Counted from the stretch's first letter, positions 4,500-60,659 are shown. The stretch is 64,000 nt of DNA from Prevotella sp. (GCA_016291495.1 JAEEXI010000002.1:113880-177879), one strand, 5' to 3'. The notes: generated by a model not told the origin, from the sequence alone. Made by a program: numbers and translations.

Positions 4500-5108
4500 T
4501 TATTCGTCTAACAGGAGTACGGTAGCGCTTCTTGCGGCTTGGGCACCCATGACGAGGACTTGTGCGATATCAGCCGTCTTCGAGGGACCGCTGATAAAGG
4601 TGCCATAACCGTAGTCGGACAGTCCGGCAACGGAATCGCCGGCACTGAGGCGCTTGTAGGCCTCGTGCATGTTGTTTACAATCTCCGACTTCTTTAGCAG
4701 GATGACCAGATTCTCGGAGATGAAGCAGACGGCTTTCTCCTTCATCTGCTGGGGAATCCACACGCAGGCATTCTCAGCCACACCGAAACTGCCGCGAACG
4801 ACGCCCACATCGGTGCCGTTCAGGTCGCGGGCCCGTCCCACCTCGTCGGGATTGCGCGTGGCGATGGTAATCTCGGGCAGGTTGGAGGCTATCTCCTTGG
4901 CATCGGGATAGAGCTCGCGGATGAGGTCGTTCACGTCGCGCCCCTTGTCCACCTCGATGGCATTGCCGCCCACGCTCTTGGTCATGTTCATAAACTGCAA
5001 CAGCGGGTCGGGGTAGGTGATGGCCTGGATGTCGCTCAGGTCGGGCATGTCGAACTGTTCGCGGATATTAGCCCTGTATTTCATCAATATATCTTCTTTA
5101 CTTGACAT
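4500..5108 (-). CDS. lutC: Lactate utilization protein C (LUD domain)
   Basis: GVAENACVW, FISGPSKTADI, GAQAARS; downstream of lutAB. Confidence 0.88.
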   Translation of the reverse strand: MSSKEDILMKYRANIREQFDMPDLSDIQAITYPDPLLQFMNMTKSVGGNAIEVDKGRDVNDLIRELYPDAKEIASNLPEITIATRNPDEVGRARDLNGTDVGVVRGSFGVAENACVWIPQQMKEKAVCFISENLVILLKKSEIVNNMHEAYKRLSAGDSVAGLSDYGYGTFISGPSKTADIAQVLVMGAQAARSATVLLLDE

Positions 5109-5137: not shown

Positions 5138-5202
5138 GCGGCAGCAAATTCTTCACTCTTCACTCTTCACTTTTCACTCTTCACTTTTCACTATTCCCTT
5201 AA
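5138..5202. repeat. Solo arm: GCGGCAGCAAATT plus 7 heptamers (YTTCACT/ATTCCCT), overlapping the lutB 3' end
   Basis: Read directly: cttcact x3, tttcact, cttcact, tttcact, attccct, taa. Confidence 0.9.
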
Positions 5203-6553
5203 TAATCTCGTGGAACGGTTTCTTGGGGAACTCCATCATCTTATGACCTTCGGCCCACGGGTTCAGGCCGCAGTTCATCAGCGGTGAGGGAATGAGGTTG
5301 GCCCAGTGGGCAAGTCCGGTGGCAAAATTATAGAGCCCGGGCGAGCCGTAGAGCATGGACATGCCTTGGCACATGAGCTTCTTCTGCGGATTGGCGGTGC
5401 CGAAGTCGCTGAGCTGTTGGCGCCACAGGTAAATCTGGTCGCCCAGATTGACCTTGGCAGGACAAACGGTCTGACAAGAGTTGCAGAGCGTGCAGGCCGA
5501 CACGTTGCCCGAGTGCTTCTGCGGGTCGCGCAGCATGCCCAGGTTGATGCCGATGGGTCCGGGGATGAAGTAGCTGTAGCTGTAGCCTCCCGAGCGACGA
5601 TAGACGGGACAGGTGTTCATGCAAGAGCCGCAGCGGATGCACTTCAGCGATTCCCAGTGCTCAGGATTGCCTATCCACTCAGAGCGCCCGTTGTCCACCA
5701 GGATGATGTGCATGTGGTGAGCCGTGGGGCGGGCCTTGCGGAAATGCGAGGTGTAGGTGGTGGTGGGCTGACCGGTTCCTGCACGACAGAGCATGCGCTG
5801 GAAGACGGCAAGGCACTCGTAGTTGGGGATGACCTTCTCCAGTCCGATGGCGGCAATGTGCAGCCGCGGGCATGAGGTCGACATGTCGGCATTGCCCTCG
5901 TTGGTGCATACCACGATGTCGCCCGTCTCGGCAATACCGAAGTTGGCGCCCGTCATGCCGGCGTCGGCGGTCAGGAACTCGTTGCGCAAACTCAATCGGG
6001 CACGATAGGTCAGGAACGTGGGGTCGTGGTTGCCCTTCTCGTTCGAAATGCCTTTCTCCTCGAAAAGCTCGCCCACATCGTCGTGGTTCAGGTGGATGGC
6101 TGGCATCACGATATGGCTGGGTGCCTGACCCTTCAACTGGATAATGCGCTCGCCCAAGTCGGTTTCCACCACCTCGATGCCTCTTTCCTCAAGATAGGGA
6201 TTCATGCCACACTCCTCCGTCAGCATCGACTTCGACTTCACCATCTTCTTGACGTTATGGTTCTTCAGGATGCCATACACGATTTCGTTGAACTCGGCAG
6301 CATCCTTCGCCCAGTGAACCTCCACGCCGTTCTTCTCGGCATTGGTGGCAAACTGGTCCAGATATTCGTCCAGATGGGTAATGGTGTGGCGCTTGATCTG
6401 CGAGGCTTTCTCGCGCAGTTGTTCCCACTCGTCCAAGCCATAGGCCATATTGTCGCGCTTGGTGCGAACGGCCCAGAAGGTGGCGTCGTGCCAGTGGGCG
6501 TATTGCTGGTTCTTTAAGAACTCCTTGGCAGCTTTGCTATGCTGTGTACTCAT
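5174..6553 (-). CDS. lutB: Lactate utilization protein B (Fe-S subunit)
   Basis: KSKSMLTEE, ETDLGERIIQL, CIRCGSCMNTCP, CTLCNSCQTVCP. Confidence 0.93.
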   Translation of the reverse strand: MSTQHSKAAKEFLKNQQYAHWHDATFWAVRTKRDNMAYGLDEWEQLREKASQIKRHTITHLDEYLDQFATNAEKNGVEVHWAKDAAEFNEIVYGILKNHNVKKMVKSKSMLTEECGMNPYLEERGIEVVETDLGERIIQLKGQAPSHIVMPAIHLNHDDVGELFEEKGISNEKGNHDPTFLTYRARLSLRNEFLTADAGMTGANFGIAETGDIVVCTNEGNADMSTSCPRLHIAAIGLEKVIPNYECLAVFQRMLCRAGTGQPTTTYTSHFRKARPTAHHMHIILVDNGRSEWIGNPEHWESLKCIRCGSCMNTCPVYRRSGGYSYSYFIPGPIGINLGMLRDPQKHSGNVSACTLCNSCQTVCPAKVNLGDQIYLWRQQLSDFGTANPQKKLMCQGMSMLYGSPGLYNFATGLAHWANLIPSPLMNCGLNPWAEGHKMMEFPKKPFHEIIKGIVKSEE

Positions 6554-6555
6554 AA

Positions 6556-6712
6556 TTTAAGGTAAAAGTGAATAGTGAAAAGTGAAAAATTTACTTCCGC
6601 ACTTCTTGCTATTCATCTTTTTCTTTTGATAATCGTTAATACTATTGTTAATTCTCACTCAGGGACAGCGGTAGCAAATTATTCACTATTCCCTTTTCAC
6701 TATTCCCTTTTA
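6556..6712. repeat. Empty inverted-arm element: left arm 6556-6600, 67-bp spacer, right arm 6668-6712
   Basis: Left arm is 43/45 identical to 7444-7488; right arm is GCGGTAGCAAATT plus 4 heptamers and ends at the lutA stop codon. Confidence 0.88.
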
Positions 6713-7441
6713 CAGCCCCGCTGCTAAAATCTCTACTACGTGCTTGAACTCAATCTTCTTGCCTTGCTTGCGGGCTACACCAGCCATATGCATCAGACAA
6801 GAGCAGTCTGGACCAGTGATATACTCAGCACCCGTCTGGATATGACGCTCCACCTTGTCGAGTCCCATCTGGGCGGACACGGCGGTCTCCTCGACGCTGA
6901 ACATGCCGCCGAAGCCGCAGCACTCGTCAGGACGCTCAGGTTCCACGACATCGATGCCGTCAACCAATTGCAACAGGTCCTTGATCTTATTGAACTTCGC
7001 TACATGCTCCTCAGAAGGGGAGGAGAGTCCCAGCTCGCGAACACCATGACAGGAATTGTGCAGGCTGACCTTATGGGCAAAGGTGCCCAGACGGCGGTCG
7101 ACCTTCACCACGTCGTGCAGGAACTCGACCACGTCCATGCATCTCTTGGCGCTCTCGCACTCATGGTTCAGCAGTCGCGGATAGTTCAGACGGATAAACG
7201 CCGTACAACTGACACTGGGTGACACCACATAGTCGAAGTCCTTGAAGAGGTCGTCAAACTTCTCTGCCAAAGGAATGGCTTGTTTCTCGAATCCTGCATT
7301 GGCCATCGGCTGACCGCAGCAGGTCTGTTTCTGTGGATACGTGACATCCAGCCCCAGATGCTTCAGCAACTTATAGGTTGCCAAACCCACCTCAGGATAG
7401 ACAGCATCCACATAACAGGGAATGAATAATCCAATTTTCAT
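6710..7441 (-). CDS. lutA: Lactate utilization protein A (CCG-domain Fe-S protein)
   Basis: LFIPCYVD, QTCCGQP, HNSCHGVR, ECCGFGGMF, DCSCLMH. Confidence 0.93.
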   Translation of the reverse strand: MKIGLFIPCYVDAVYPEVGLATYKLLKHLGLDVTYPQKQTCCGQPMANAGFEKQAIPLAEKFDDLFKDFDYVVSPSVSCTAFIRLNYPRLLNHECESAKRCMDVVEFLHDVVKVDRRLGTFAHKVSLHNSCHGVRELGLSSPSEEHVAKFNKIKDLLQLVDGIDVVEPERPDECCGFGGMFSVEETAVSAQMGLDKVERHIQTGAEYITGPDCSCLMHMAGVARKQGKKIEFKHVVEILAAGL

Positions 7442-7497
7442 AGTTTAAGGTAAAAGTGAATAGTGAAAAGTGAATAATTTGCTTCCGCCATTCCTTT

Positions 7498-7875
7498 TCA
7501 CTTCATTTCATTATTTTGTTTCGTTGTTTTAATTGATGAAATCAGAAGAGCAAGTAACTCTTGGCAGTCTATATTCATGCTCTCGAATTCCTTTTCATTC
7601 AAATAATCAGTATCTTTTAGGATATTGAGCCAATAGAGGGTTTCGTTGCACTCTTTTAGTGCAATAGACAGTTTGTTGATGAAATCAGCTGGGCTTTGCG
7701 CATAGGTTGCCTCACTTACCAAAGCACCAATAGCTGTACCAGAGCGGAATATTTGATTAATCATTCCATACTCTTTAGGGCTACATTTGATAAATTTCAC
7801 CATCTTTACTATTCTCACTCCGAAGCAATAGCTTTTCTTCGTGAGTGGCGTATTATTATGTTGAATATAAGACAT
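7498..7875 (-). CDS. Four helix bundle protein (23S rRNA IVS-protein/Avd-like family)
   Basis: QIFRSGTAIGALVSEA..AQS..DFINKLSIALKECNETLYWL family signature; more AT-rich than its neighbours. Confidence 0.92.
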   Translation of the reverse strand: MSYIQHNNTPLTKKSYCFGVRIVKMVKFIKCSPKEYGMINQIFRSGTAIGALVSEATYAQSPADFINKLSIALKECNETLYWLNILKDTDYLNEKEFESMNIDCQELLALLISSIKTTKQNNEMK

Positions 7876-7967
7876 GCGGCAGCAAATCGTTTCTTTATTA
7901 TGCTTTGCCTCAGCGGCGGCAGCAAATCGTTTCTTTATTATGCTTGCCTCAGTGGCGGCAGCAAATT
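7876..7967. repeat. Tandem 40/39-bp duplication plus a third partial copy, each starting GCGGCAGCAAAT
   Basis: Copies at 7876-7915, 7916-7954 and 7955-7967. Confidence 0.92.
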
Positions 7968-7994
7968 ATTCACTTTTCACTATTCACTTTTCCC

Positions 7995-9599
7995 TTAAAT
8001 CACGTGCAACCCCAGGAACACCATCAGTCCATTCATCAATATCCAGAAGATAGCGAATGGCATCGTCCTGCGCATAATGTCGCCGTCCTGCCCCTCCATG
8101 TCGCAGGCGGCAGTAGCAATGGCGATCGACTGCGGTGAGAGCAGTTTACCGCCCTCAGAACCCGCACAGTTGGCAGCCGCGAGCCAGTTGGTCTCGCTAC
8201 CCGTAACGCCAAAGAAGGTGCCTTGGTTCACCAATCCGAGGTCGCTGGCAGCGGTAGCCTGCAACTTACCAAACAGGATGTTGGCATTGGTGGCTGATCC
8301 CGTTACGAAGGTTCCGATAGAACCAATCAGTGGAGCGAAGAAGGGGAAGGCTGCACCCGTCAGCAGGACGAGTCCCTTGGCAATGTCGTTGGTCATACCC
8401 GTGTTGTTCATCAGCATCGCCATCGCTACGAGACAGCAGATGGTCACGACCGTCTTCTGCAGGTTGAGCGTGGTCTTAGCCAACAACTTCAACAACTTGC
8501 CGATACTCATACCCTGAATCAGTCCACCGATGACGGCACCCAGGAAAATCATCAGACCTGCATTCGACAACCAACCGAACTTAAAGGTATTGCCAATGAC
8601 GGGCAACTCGAACTTGGTCACCAAAGTGTTGTTCAACAGCTCATTGACAGAAGGAACAATCTTGCTGCTGATCAGGATGAAGAAGATAATCAGTCCATAG
8701 ACACTCCATGCCTTCAGCGTCTTGACGACACCGAATTTGTGGTGTTCCACATGCACCGTATCCTTCTCAGCCTCATGGCGCAGGAACAGCTTGTTATACA
8801 GCAGCATGGCTGCGATGGCGGCTACAGAGCCCAGGATGGCGGGTGTCTCAGGACCGATGAAGTGGGCACAGCAGAACTGCACAGTGATAGAACAGGTTCC
8901 CACGAAGAGGGCAATAGTGATGTTCTTCACAATCTTCGTCTTGTCCGTCATCATCAGGATAAGGAACGGGGTGATGTAGAACATCAGCGAGAGCTGTAAT
9001 ATAATAAAGGTGGCCACCTCGCAGAGCTCCTCAGGCGTTGCCGTTCCACTTGCCGCCACTTGGTTGGCCAATGTCGTGGCAGGCAGACCGACGGCTCCGA
9101 AACCTACGGCAACCGTGTTTGCCACCAGACAGATAACGGCTGAGAACATGGGCTTGAAACCCAGTCCTATCAAGATGGCCGCAGGAATGGCTACAGCGGT
9201 GCCGAAACCAGCCATACCCTCCAGCACGCCACCAAGGCCCCACGTCAACAGCAGCACCAACAGTCCCTTGTCGCTGGTCATCTGGATAAACTGCGTCTTG
9301 ATAGTCTCAATCTCCTTCGTCTCACACAGGATATTGTAACTGAAGATGGCACAGATGATGATCAGGATAATGGGGAAACATGCCTTCAGCAGTCCTTCCA
9401 CCACTGACCATAAAGTGATGCCGAAGATACTGGCATCTGCAAACTTCTCGGGAATGATACCCATTGCAGGCACGGCAAACAATGCCAGGAGGATGGTCAC
9501 GATAAGGGTGACGATGGCACTCCTGTAGCCGGAAACCTTGAATCCCATCATCAGTACAATGAGTAACAGAATAGGGATTACGGATATTAATGCTGTCAT
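7995..9599 (-). CDS. lctP: L-lactate permease
   Basis: Many transmembrane segments; LEGMAGFGTAVAI, IGTFVTGSATNANILFG, LLSPQSIAIA. Confidence 0.93.
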   Translation of the reverse strand: MTALISVIPILLLIVLMMGFKVSGYRSAIVTLIVTILLALFAVPAMGIIPEKFADASIFGITLWSVVEGLLKACFPIILIIICAIFSYNILCETKEIETIKTQFIQMTSDKGLLVLLLTWGLGGVLEGMAGFGTAVAIPAAILIGLGFKPMFSAVICLVANTVAVGFGAVGLPATTLANQVAASGTATPEELCEVATFIILQLSLMFYITPFLILMMTDKTKIVKNITIALFVGTCSITVQFCCAHFIGPETPAILGSVAAIAAMLLYNKLFLRHEAEKDTVHVEHHKFGVVKTLKAWSVYGLIIFFILISSKIVPSVNELLNNTLVTKFELPVIGNTFKFGWLSNAGLMIFLGAVIGGLIQGMSIGKLLKLLAKTTLNLQKTVVTICCLVAMAMLMNNTGMTNDIAKGLVLLTGAAFPFFAPLIGSIGTFVTGSATNANILFGKLQATAASDLGLVNQGTFFGVTGSETNWLAAANCAGSEGGKLLSPQSIAIATAACDMEGQDGDIMRRTMPFAIFWILMNGLMVFLGLHVI

Positions 9600-58292: not shown

Positions 58293-60659
58293 CTACTTCT
58301 TTTGCAAGTATTCATCCATATGGGCTGCCGCACGACGACCGTCGCCCATAGCAAGAATCACGGTAGCGCCACCACGGACGATGTCACCACCGGCGAAGAT
58401 TTCAGAACGAGCCGACTGCATGCCCTCGTTGACGACGATGGTGTTCTTGCGACCCAGTTCCAATCCCTTGATAGATTTAGGAACCAATGGATTGGGGGAT
58501 ACACCAACGGCAACGATAACCTGGTCAACTTCCAAGGTAACGGTCTTGCCCTCTACGGGAACAGGACTGCGACGGCCACTGGCATCTGGCTCACCGAGTT
58601 CCATGACCTGCAGAACGGCAGCCTTGACGGCACCGTTCTCGTCAGCGATGTACTCGATAGGATTGTGGAGCGTCAGGAAGTTGATACCTTCTTCCTTGGC
58701 ATGCTTCACTTCCTCCAGACGGGCAGGCATCTCTTGTTCAGAACGACGGTAGACGAGGGTAACGTTACCACCCAGACGCTTAGCCGTACGGCAAGAGTCC
58801 ATAGCGGTATTACCACCACCCACAACAAGTACGTTCTTACCCAGATTGATAGGTGTATCCGTCGTCGGGTTGGCAGCATCCATCAGGTTCACACGGGTGA
58901 GGTACTCATTTGACGACATGATATTGATGGCATTCTCGCCAGGAATATTCATGAAGTTAGGCAGACCGGCACCAGAACCTACGAAGACACCTTTGAAACC
59001 CTGCTGTTCCAGCGTCTCGACGCTGATGGTCTTACCAACGATGACGTCGGTCTGGAAGTGGACGCCCATCTTGGCAAGGTTCTCGATTTCCACGTCCACG
59101 ATCTTGTTGGGCAGACGGAACTCAGGGATACCGTATTTCAGCACACCGCCAATCTCGTGCAATGCCTCGAAGACATACACGTCATAACCTTTCTTCACCA
59201 TATCGCCAGCGAAGCTCAGTCCGGCAGGACCAGAGCCTACAACAGCAATCTTGATGCCGTTGGCAGGTGCAATCTCCGGCAGACTGATGTTGCCGCTCTC
59301 GCGCTCGTAGTCGGCAGCGAAGCGCTCCAGATAGCCGATGGCTACAGCGGGCTCGTTCATCTTCAGATGGATACACTTGCTCTCACACTGTTTCTCCTGG
59401 GGACAAACACGTCCACAGACTGCGGGTAGGGCAGAAGTGTCCTTCAGAACCTTAGCGGCAGCCAAGAAATCACCACGCTCGATATTCTTGACAAACGATG
59501 GGATGTTGATGTTGACAGGACAACCCTCGACACAGGTAGGCTTTGCGCAGTCCAGACAACGCTTGGCTTCCGTCATTGCCATCTCCTTGGTGAGTCCGAT
59601 GTTCACCTCCTCAATACGGGTGGTAGCGCGATAGACAGGGTCCAACTCCGGCATGATGACACGCTCGATGGCCGTGCGCTCCTTGGGTTTCATGCTCTTG
59701 CGGAGCTCTTCACGCCATGCAGCGTTGCGATCGGTCAGTACTTCAATGGGGTCGTTAGTGGAGTCGCTGTCCATCGTCACATCAGTGGCGGCAGCATTTT
59801 TTTCACTCTTCACTTTTCCCTCTTCACTTCCCATCAGATGCTCCTCATAATGCTCCAGTTCTTCTTGCTCGGCACGCTTGAAGGTGCCCATGCGCTTGAA
59901 CATCTCGTCCCAATCGACGAGAGCACCGTCAAATTCAGGACCGTCGATGCAGACGAACTTCGTCTTGCCACCAATCGTCAGACGACAGGCACCACACATA
60001 CCTGTACCATCAACCATAATGGTGTTGAGGCTGACCTCACAAGGGATATTGTATTTTTGGGCAGTGAGGTTGGAGAACTTCATCATGATGGGAGGGCCGA
60101 TGGCAAATACCTTGTCGACATGCGGTTCCTGTTGGATGAACTTCTCAATACCAACAGTTACCACACCTTTCTCACCATAACTGCCGTCATCGGTCATGAT
60201 GATGACTTCGTCTGATGACTCACGTACCTTATCTTCAAGGATAATCAAATCCTTTGAACGGCCTGCCATTACAGAGAGAACACGGTTGCCGGCGGCCTTC
60301 AGAGCCTGGATGATAGGCAACATGGGTGCCACACCCAGTCCACCACCGGCACATACGACCGTACCGTAGTTCTCAATGTGGGTGGGATTACCCAATGGAC
60401 CAACTACGTCAGCCACATACTCGCCTTCTTTCAAGGCACAAAGTTTCTTGGAAGAAAGTCCTACCATCTGTACGACCAGAGTAATGGTACCTTTGTCAAT
60501 ATCGGCACCGGCAATGGTCAGAGGCATACGTTCACCTTTCTGGTCAACACGTACAATCACGAAATTACCAGCCTTACGGCTTTTCGCAATCAATGGAGCC
60601 TCAATCTCAAAAAGGAAAACCTTCTCTGAGAACTGCTCTTTTCTTACAATTTTATTCAT
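58293..60659 (-). CDS. Fused NfnA-NfnB-type transhydrogenase (DHOD-B NAD-binding plus GltD-like)
   Basis: GERMPLTI, GTGMCGACR, CIDGPEFD; CLDCAKPTCVEGCP, VCPQEKQCE, GSGPAGL, GGGNTAMD. Confidence 0.88.
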   Translation of the reverse strand: MNKIVRKEQFSEKVFLFEIEAPLIAKSRKAGNFVIVRVDQKGERMPLTIAGADIDKGTITLVVQMVGLSSKKLCALKEGEYVADVVGPLGNPTHIENYGTVVCAGGGLGVAPMLPIIQALKAAGNRVLSVMAGRSKDLIILEDKVRESSDEVIIMTDDGSYGEKGVVTVGIEKFIQQEPHVDKVFAIGPPIMMKFSNLTAQKYNIPCEVSLNTIMVDGTGMCGACRLTIGGKTKFVCIDGPEFDGALVDWDEMFKRMGTFKRAEQEELEHYEEHLMGSEEGKVKSEKNAAATDVTMDSDSTNDPIEVLTDRNAAWREELRKSMKPKERTAIERVIMPELDPVYRATTRIEEVNIGLTKEMAMTEAKRCLDCAKPTCVEGCPVNINIPSFVKNIERGDFLAAAKVLKDTSALPAVCGRVCPQEKQCESKCIHLKMNEPAVAIGYLERFAADYERESGNISLPEIAPANGIKIAVVGSGPAGLSFAGDMVKKGYDVYVFEALHEIGGVLKYGIPEFRLPNKIVDVEIENLAKMGVHFQTDVIVGKTISVETLEQQGFKGVFVGSGAGLPNFMNIPGENAINIMSSNEYLTRVNLMDAANPTTDTPINLGKNVLVVGGGNTAMDSCRTAKRLGGNVTLVYRRSEQEMPARLEEVKHAKEEGINFLTLHNPIEYIADENGAVKAAVLQVMELGEPDASGRRSPVPVEGKTVTLEVDQVIVAVGVSPNPLVPKSIKGLELGRKNTIVVNEGMQSARSEIFAGGDIVRGGATVILAMGDGRRAAAHMDEYLQKK
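59784..59832. repeat. Solo arm of the GCGGCAGCA/TTCACT family inside a CDS
   Basis: AGTGGCGGCAGCATTTTTTTCACTCTTCACTTTTCCCTCTTCACTTCCC versus 7951-7994. Confidence 0.8.

Follow-up and report, generated by a model that had tools for sequence, protein, structure and literature searches.

A 157-nt palindromic insert that carries no gene separates lutA from lutB in a rumen Prevotella genome, and we consider it most likely, with a probability of roughly three in four, to belong, as a non-autonomous form that lacks the gene, to a family of hairpin cassettes, inserted at the point where the two cistrons overlap. The insert occupies positions 6556-6712 of the window, by which we mean the whole 64,000-nt stretch of DNA that was analyzed, and lies between the lutA stop and the lutB ATG. 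The genome carrying the window is labeled G000; other G numbers denote congeneric genomes, and L numbers are mostly metagenome or MAG contigs. Family members have arms of four to five AGTGAAN heptads plus a 13-nt core, and full-size members hold one gene of the PF05635 four-helix-bundle type. The features of the region are collected in Table 1.

Table 1. Features of the lut region and other arm- or PF05635-bearing sites of genome G000 (positions in the window, except those with a C prefix)
Feature	Position	Strand	Details
Lactate permease (lctP)	7995-9599	-	Pfam
Loaded sister element, lctP/lutA	7444..7999	-	47-nt arms, 96% complementary; carries PF05635 gene
IVP gene	7498-7875	-	125 aa; PF05635 23S_rRNA_IVP, E 1.2e-24
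lutA	6710..7441	-	243 aa, two CCG domains, Pfam; element supplies stop codon
5' arm of insert (mRNA sense)	6668..6712	-	TAA (6710-6712), then AAGGGAAT AGTGAAA AGGGAAT AGTGAAT, then core AATTTGCTACCGC
Spacer (hairpin loop)	6601..6667	-	67 nt, 70% A+T, type TGTCCC...GAATAGCAAGAAGT
3' arm of insert (mRNA sense)	6556..6600	-	core GCGGAAGTAAATT, then TTTCACT TTTCACT ATTCACT TTTACCTTAAA
lutB	5174..6553	-	459 aa, Pfam; ATG 5 nt past CCTTA end of 3' arm
Solo 5' arm, lutB/lutC	5138..5200	-	7 heptads + core
lutC	4500-5108	-	Pfam
Solo 5'-type arm in ORF	59784..59830	-	in frame, in linker of 788-aa PRK12778-type fusion protein (ORF 58293-60659)
PF05635 gene	C22:40462		word AGTTGAG
PF05635 gene	C27:16347		word ATGCTTA
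PF05635 gene	C22:64143		word ATTGAGA
PF05635 gene	C4:53515		word TGTCAAC

Arms are named here on the mRNA (minus) strand, so that the left arm of an earlier note on this DNA is our 3' arm and its right arm our 5' arm. That note had described an empty version of the element between lutA and lutB, and its account of the anatomy stands. The 3' arm is identical at 43/45 positions to the 3' arm of the loaded copy (7444-7488); the right arm does end at the lutA TAA, the TTA at 6710-6712 being the stop of the minus-strand lutA ORF; and the AT-rich spacer found in place of the gene has no conserved ORF, its base composition standing against 48.6% G+C for the window as a whole. The 5' arms of the two copies (7955-7999 in the loaded one) agree at 38/45 positions, and a direct repeat of 56 nt with 91% identity (6550-6605 versus 7438-7493) takes in the two 3' arms; recombination between these could, as the note proposed, delete lutA. 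A CTGAG motif said to be common to both copies is also there: CTCAG (coding-strand CTGAG) occurs at 6658, immediately internal to the right arm, and the loaded copy has it at 7909 and 7948; the 5-mer occurs seven times in 1.6 kb and is by itself weak evidence, while a longer form, CCGCT(A/G)(C/T)CCTGAGT, is found behind other arms of the G000 genome. Toward lutB, the heptads of the 3' arm (TTTCACT TTTCACT ATTCACT TTTACCTT) are followed by AAATT and the ATG at 6551-6553, placing the arm edge 2 nt, and the last conserved arm base in CCTTA 5 nt, upstream of the start codon.

The element shares its ends with the IVP-loaded copy, both arms of the insert being built of AGTGAAN heptads and the core AATTTGCTNCCGC, and the arm type that defines the family, heptads with the cores AATTTGCT(A/G)CCGC and GCGGAAGCAAATT, is present on both sides. 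At 157 bp, with arms of 42-45 nt and no conserved ORF, the insert has the size and terminal inverted repeats of a MITE. It sits between a stop codon and the ATG of the next co-oriented gene, with the polarity of the genes, and its loop lacks a PF05635 gene, making it a gene-less form. Several candidate functions were tried and rejected. A small ORF in the spacer (MNSKKCGSKFFTFHYSLLP) is not conserved, as other copies have TTG, no start codon or an in-frame TAG. No Bacteroidota -33/-7 promoter pair (TTTG...TAnnTTTG) fits the arms by eye, and the arm 3' end TACCTTAA scores only 6/8 as a -7 box. Nor does the stem have the form of an intrinsic terminator, being long and AT-rich with periodic mismatches and followed by UUAAAUUAUG instead of a U run. 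A search of Rfam with the element returned no family match, only two sub-threshold miRNA look-alikes.

The junction was compared across 21 genomes, comprising G000 and the lut operon of 20 other species of the genus, and across 78 metagenome contigs encoding close LutA relatives. In 15/21 genomes, lutA and lutB overlap by ATGA in an ancestral-type junction (...TTATGAGT...; consensus ...GGA(T/C)TATGAGTACA...), the stop TGA lying within ATGA, and the empty site reads ...GGNCTATGAGTACA.... The same overlap is seen in 33/78 metagenome contigs, among them that of the closest relative, L095, with 96% LutA amino acid identity. The 157 nt are therefore not ancestral intergenic DNA. The insert stands exactly between the last sense codon of lutA and the lutB ATG, its own TAA replacing the ancestral TGA, and comparison of the junctions shows it to be an insertion into an ancestral 4-nt ATGA stop/start overlap. 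Models of target-site duplication with TA, TTA or 7 nt fit none of the filled/empty pairs cleanly (lutA/lutB and XRE/acs); no clean duplication appears at either site, though a degenerate TTATGA duplicate could be present.

On these alignments, the cistron junction is hypervariable. Some insert of 27-306 nt is found in 45/78 metagenome relatives, and other inserts occur at the same point in 4/21 genomes, two of them unrelated hairpins. Most inserts consist of four to six heptads of varied words (ATAACGN, AGTTAAG, ATTGAAG, AAGGTAA, AGTGAAN and others) with a stop triplet in each unit, and the arrays usually terminate in (A/G)(A/T)TT before the ATG, like the ancestral GATT preceding ATG. Among the closest relatives of G062, the one other sampled genome that has the element at lutA/lutB, three states occur: ATGA (L130), AGTGAA-only arrays (L124 and L129) and the full hairpin. 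Such variation brings up a local origin, with the heptad arrays arising by slippage or by 7-nt junction duplication and the hairpin by inverted duplication in place. This account, which we judge very improbable, draws on the arrays of unrelated words in those 45/78 relatives, nearly all with the same (A/G)(A/T)TT ending, and on the AGTGAA-only arrays at lutA/lutB in the closest G062 relatives; against it, copies at unrelated loci and in other species have the same spacer ends and the same core (AATTTGCTACCGC / GCGGAAGCAAATT), which is not a heptad sequence. A local origin explains neither this nor the 97% identical spacer in a non-sister species. As a separate observation, a second family of hairpins, G+C-rich and ~160 nt long with arms AGCCTCCCCAAGCCCCTCCCAAGGAGGGG..., occupies the same kinds of junction, at lctP/lutA in L058 (G080), at lutA/lutB in L106 and in L128.

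Other operon junctions, in at least eight species, also hold gene-less copies that share these arms, cores and spacer ends. Their layout is constant: a stop codon, then 5' arm, core, spacer, core and 3' arm, then 2-8 nt and an ATG. G342 has such copies at proC/XRE-cupin, XRE-cupin/acyl-CoA synthetase and aminotransferase/proC, G063 at XRE-cupin/acs, G149 and L102 at lctP/lutA, and G260, G082, G213 and G188 at further junctions. Among 22 non-redundant arm pairs, 15 are flanked by two long ORFs, one of which ends at the 5' edge while the other begins at the 3' edge, and in 16/17 cases the distance from the first base of the 3' core to the downstream ATG is 47-49 nt. The arm itself is present in 139/401 sampled species of the genus. 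When the spacer was sought genome-wide, as the earlier note had advised, the lutA/lutB spacer proved to occur once in its own genome, and its type was also met at unrelated junctions of other species; the ends TGTCCC... and ...GAATAGCAAGAAGT are related among copies, and identity between the G000 spacer and those of other-junction copies is 64-79%. Judged by these common arms, cores and spacer ends, the 157-nt element is part of a dispersed gene-less family. A chance or low-complexity palindrome, or an assembly artifact, has in our estimate a negligible probability: although the sequence here is repetitive and rich in A+T, in a draft genome of 28 contigs, the 13 occurrences of the heptad word in the window against 0.02 expected show that the pattern is not chance, the 157 nt also stand at the same site in an independent assembly, and dozens of related copies are found in other assemblies. 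In L077 (G195:C25), a gene-less hairpin lies between convergent genes, where the terminal TAAGG of each arm provides a TAA stop on each strand.

The loaded form is likewise widespread. Relatives of the cargo protein, 70-90% identical, are found between AGTGAAN arms at no fewer than 10 operon junctions of rumen Prevotella MAGs, lutB/lutC among them, and the loaded cassettes in L175-L195 (at junctions that include nusA/infB, dxr/rseP, upstream gene/argG, upstream gene/argC and permease/ABC ATPase) each lie between a stop and an ATG. Orthologous junctions exist in several states. The lctP/lutA junction is loaded in G000, empty in G149 and L102 and reduced to a 2-heptad footprint in G076. At lutB/lutC, the loaded element is found in three genomes (G062, G082 and G188); G000 has a solo 5' arm there, G063 has a solo 3' arm joined to the tail of the IVP gene, and G102 and G034 have ATGA. 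The proC/XRE-cupin junction is loaded in G076, empty in G342 and a footprint (TAAGGGAATAGTGAAAAGGGAATAATT-ATG) in G000, and at XRE-cupin/acs the loaded form is present in L177 and L182, the empty form in G063 and G342, and no element (TAA-GTT-ATG) in G000. The G000 footprint at proC/XRE suggests that some heptad arrays are collapsed elements.

Two copies document the loss of cargo. In G342c, the sequence MTYL + ALLISSIKTTKQNIENK* corresponds to the first four and last seventeen cargo codons, as expected of an in-frame internal deletion, and 185 nt of the IVP gene remain in G125:C91; by their residual coding sequence, both are internal deletions of the IVP gene. For the G000 spacer type, derivation from cargo by deletion is plausible, the deletions themselves being seen in those other copies only. 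Local alignment of the spacer with cargo-gene interiors scored 23 against 21 +/- 2.5 for shuffled sequence, with 119/500 shuffles as high, and the idea that the spacer is an IVP-gene remnant was rejected since it did no better than shuffles; its last ~28 nt align to the 3' end of the gene in one comparison only.

These deletions, together with the solo arms at lutB/lutC in G000 and G063, which are remnants of loaded copies, and the solo 3' arm with a loaded-type trailer (GAATGGCGGAAGC) at lutA/lutB in L107, lend some weight to an account in which a loaded IVP cassette at lutA/lutB was deleted internally and the empty copy never moved. We nevertheless hold loss in place to be unlikely. Gene-containing alleles, which the earlier note had proposed to look for at this junction, were found at lctP/lutA, proC/XRE-cupin and XRE-cupin/acyl-CoA synthetase, but none was present at lutA/lutB in the 21 genomes and 78 metagenome contigs; the spacer has no significant similarity to the cargo gene; and at least eight species have the same spacer type, in gene-less copies located at unrelated junctions, so the gene-less form predated its arrival at lutA/lutB. 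The note's inference of a MITE-like derivative is supported by the ancestral absence of the insert, the gene-less copies elsewhere, the loaded and empty alleles and the two internal deletions, and its opposite, a spacer of conserved ancestral lut DNA with no loaded allele anywhere, does not describe what was found.

To our minds the strongest sign of mobility is the excess similarity of the elements in G000 and G062. Only G062 shares the lutA/lutB element (121 genomes searched with the junction, 401 with the spacer). The element interiors are identical at 93/97 positions (96-97%) and the spacers at 65/67, whereas lutA, lutB and lutC are 74-81% identical overall and 45-59% at third codon positions, and the 20-40 nt flanking the insert show an ordinary 80% identity. 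In the LutABC tree, G000 groups with G065, G015 and G080 (support 94/94, within a 100/99 clade) and G062 with G096 and G034 (100/99); the unlinked helicase PcrA gives the same ranking, with 86-79% identity for the G000 group versus 77% for G062. The nearest neighbors of both genomes have ATGA at lutA/lutB. Vertical inheritance is disfavored, because many precise losses, each restoring ATGA, would be needed. Two recent gains from a common pool are a much simpler account, and the comparison suggests that the element was gained recently and independently. In their outer 5' heptads, the two copies differ at 8/27 positions, which is odd for a very recent common source. Private arm variants are shared within a genome, both G062 copies having CACTGTTCAC paired with GTGAACAGTG where G000 has A/T, which indicates that arms of copies in one genome exchange sequence.

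The spacer, with 97% identity in two species despite a divergence of 19-26% between their genes, could also be read as being under selection, in a host regulatory hairpin that is not mobile but uncouples the translation of lutA from that of lutB, shields the upstream mRNA or serves as an RNase site. The fixed stop/start geometry and polarity, and two mismatches kept in 30-33 of 33 stems, would suit such a role, and REP and ERIC elements are established to exert effects of this sort. Yet most relatives are without the element and keep the tighter ATGA coupling, and the two carriers are non-sister. In addition, same-site spacers in G063 and G342 match at only 66%, against 92% identity of the adjacent host protein, while different-site spacers within G342 are 90% alike; because the same-site copies differ to this degree, the spacer is not generally constrained. 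We therefore rate a purely regulatory hairpin as quite improbable, and a regulatory effect would in any case be compatible with mobility.

The preferred reading, that of a mobile hairpin, extends to the RNA. Folding of the mRNA strand predicts a 35-pair stem of -43 kcal/mol (z = -3.3), and 0/200 shuffles are as stable. In 33 distinct elements aligned in register, 86.9% of stem cells pair, compared with 41-50% in slid controls; cells with changes on both sides number 23 versus 15.3 +/- 2.9 in shuffled alignments, a value reached by 4/500 shuffles, although this covariation signal is modest and sequence relatedness can inflate the double-change count. The seventh heptad base is paired in only ~60% of cells. 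Of the two mismatches that persist in 30-33/33 elements, one is in the core (A/G opposite A) and the other close to the outer end (G opposite A). They make the palindrome directional, and nearly all copies, gene-less ones included, point the same way as their host genes. This polarity argues for a constraint on one strand, acting either through the RNA or through an oriented insertion step.

The G000 genome holds 44 arms by an arm-plus-core pattern (a loose heptad regular expression gives 650 matches, mostly spurious), the majority of them solo, and only three gene-less hairpins. All five of its PF05635 genes are bracketed by heptad arrays, with a different word for each; at C4:53515 the arrays are direct, not inverted. 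The nearest solved relative of the 125-aa IVP protein of the lctP/lutA element is PDB 2rld (E 9e-32). Within that element, at 7876-7967 between the 5' arm and the IVP ATG, a unit of 39-40 nt that includes a copy of the arm core (GATTTGCTGCCGC) is repeated twice, and loaded copies of other species have only 2-7 nt at this position. Two adjacent reverse transcriptase genes (C22:49400-51426) lie 9-14 kb from two of the PF05635 genes, though not adjacent to arms; PF05635 takes in the Avd proteins of diversity-generating retroelements, which would offer a possible link to them.

As for how the insert came to be tolerated and to spread, the element would be co-transcribed in the lctP-lutABC mRNA, and its RNA is predicted to fold into a stem of ~40 bp with a mismatch at every seventh base. 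The lutA stop and the lutB start would then meet at the foot of the stem, which may account for tolerance of the insert. Cleavage of the stem, possibly by RNase III, may also occur, as in rRNA intervening sequences. Gene-less copies could spread by recombination via shared arms or by whatever moves the loaded copies, perhaps host enzymes acting with the IVP protein, and the heptad arrays with unrelated words at the same junction imply that a local array-generating process could contribute. We know of no PF05635 protein that is a transposase. No enzyme gene other than IVP was found between arms in the G000 genome, where a search for a Y1/RAYT mobilizer gave one Y1-like gene (C22:817-1611) with no arms beside it, and a search for a vector gave no match among 72,556 plasmids and 50,697 phages. 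A wider proposal, in our opinion rather doubtful, is that heptad-armed hairpins form a site-directed mobile system without a conventional transposase. They would insert precisely at operon stop/start overlaps, their TAA...TTA termini re-creating the upstream stop and the downstream ATG; IVP would mobilize gene-less copies in trans, as parent elements do MITEs; short arrays would be footprints; and the 23S intervening sequences would be copies that landed in rRNA.

The PF05635 family was first found within 23S rRNA intervening sequences (IVS), and the role of these sequences and of S23p/PF05635 proteins has been a question since the early 1990s. Like the hairpins described here, 23S IVS come in loaded copies (ORF-bearing in Coxiella burnetii and Leptospira) and gene-less ones (ORF-less in Salmonella, Campylobacter and Yersinia), and they share inverted termini, a long stem in the host transcript and a patchy distribution among relatives. 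In contrast to 23S IVS, the insert lies between the protein-coding cistrons lutA and lutB rather than in helix 25 or 45, its whole arm consists of heptads and a conserved core with ends that coincide with a stop and a start codon, and RNase III excision, hypothetical here, would sever the mRNA instead of leaving a working ribosome. The IVS of C. burnetii, the closest relative described so far, has the same gene family in its loop, a 28-bp stem and tandem heptamers at the RNase III site; it is regarded as a selfish element of unknown mobility (PMC4990558). That 23S IVS have a mobile origin is an old proposal, which was never demonstrated (PMC4990558).

With the Correia, ERIC, RUP and BOX elements the insert shares a size of 100-160 bp, terminal inverted repeats, the lack of an ORF, multiple copies, presence/absence polymorphism and a place in transcribed intergenic DNA with an RNA hairpin fold, predicted in our case. 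Correia/NEMIS (Neisseria), ERIC/IRU (enterobacteria) and RUP and BOX (pneumococcus) are bacterial MITEs co-transcribed in operons, and Correia hairpins are cut by RNase III. The present element differs from them in having no evident TA or other target duplication, a full-size partner that encodes a four-helix-bundle protein and no recognized transposase, strict stop-ATG placement, near-fixed polarity and tandem-heptad arms. REP/BIME sequences, which can modulate mRNA stability and translation and are mobilized in trans by a single-copy gene (RAYT), are also palindromic repeats between operon genes; REP, however, are ~35 nt and go with a Y1 (HUH) transposase, whereas the Y1-like gene of G000 is without arms. 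A final set of relatives consists of paired tandem hepta- or octanucleotide arrays described without a gene, the STRR of cyanobacteria included; why bacterial genomes contain 7-nt tandem repeats in excess has likewise been a question since the early 1990s. These arrays also have 7-nt units, three to five in tandem, that lie on opposite strands a variable distance apart, both inside genes and between them, but they are read as protein-binding or G4 sites, and their descriptions make no link to PF05635 cargo, stop/start junctions or insertion polymorphism. Paired heptanucleotide arrays without a gene in Geobacter metallireducens were described as putative "global regulator sites" (PMC2700814), and the heptameric excess has been described as well (PMC4692102). 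PF05635 genes wedged between cas genes have been reported, with no mention of arms (PMC3936711). Our literature search found no description of gene-less hairpin derivatives at cistron junctions.

A few operon junctions of Prevotella thus provide a natural series of ancestral overlap, loaded, gene-less, solo-arm and footprint states. This allelic series and the G000/G062 case turn "possibly once mobile" into a testable claim on insertion specificity and trans-mobilization. The arms also bear on annotation, as they donate stop codons, C-terminal residues and, in one instance, an in-frame linker; what looks like a gene end or a fusion in Prevotella genomes can therefore have been produced by these repeats. 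The last eight codons of lutB and its TGA stop derive from the solo arm at lutB/lutC. The arm at 59784-59830 sits between a DHOD-B-like FAD/NAD domain and a GltD domain, at about residues 277-292 (GSEEGKVKSEKNAAA), its TGA units altered so that the reading frame is open, and the fusion protein is ~36 aa longer than the 752-position family profile. A 3'-type arm is apparently read through in frame at C7:15351 and C7:18392, in a 1026-aa ORF, the flank being present twice on the contig.
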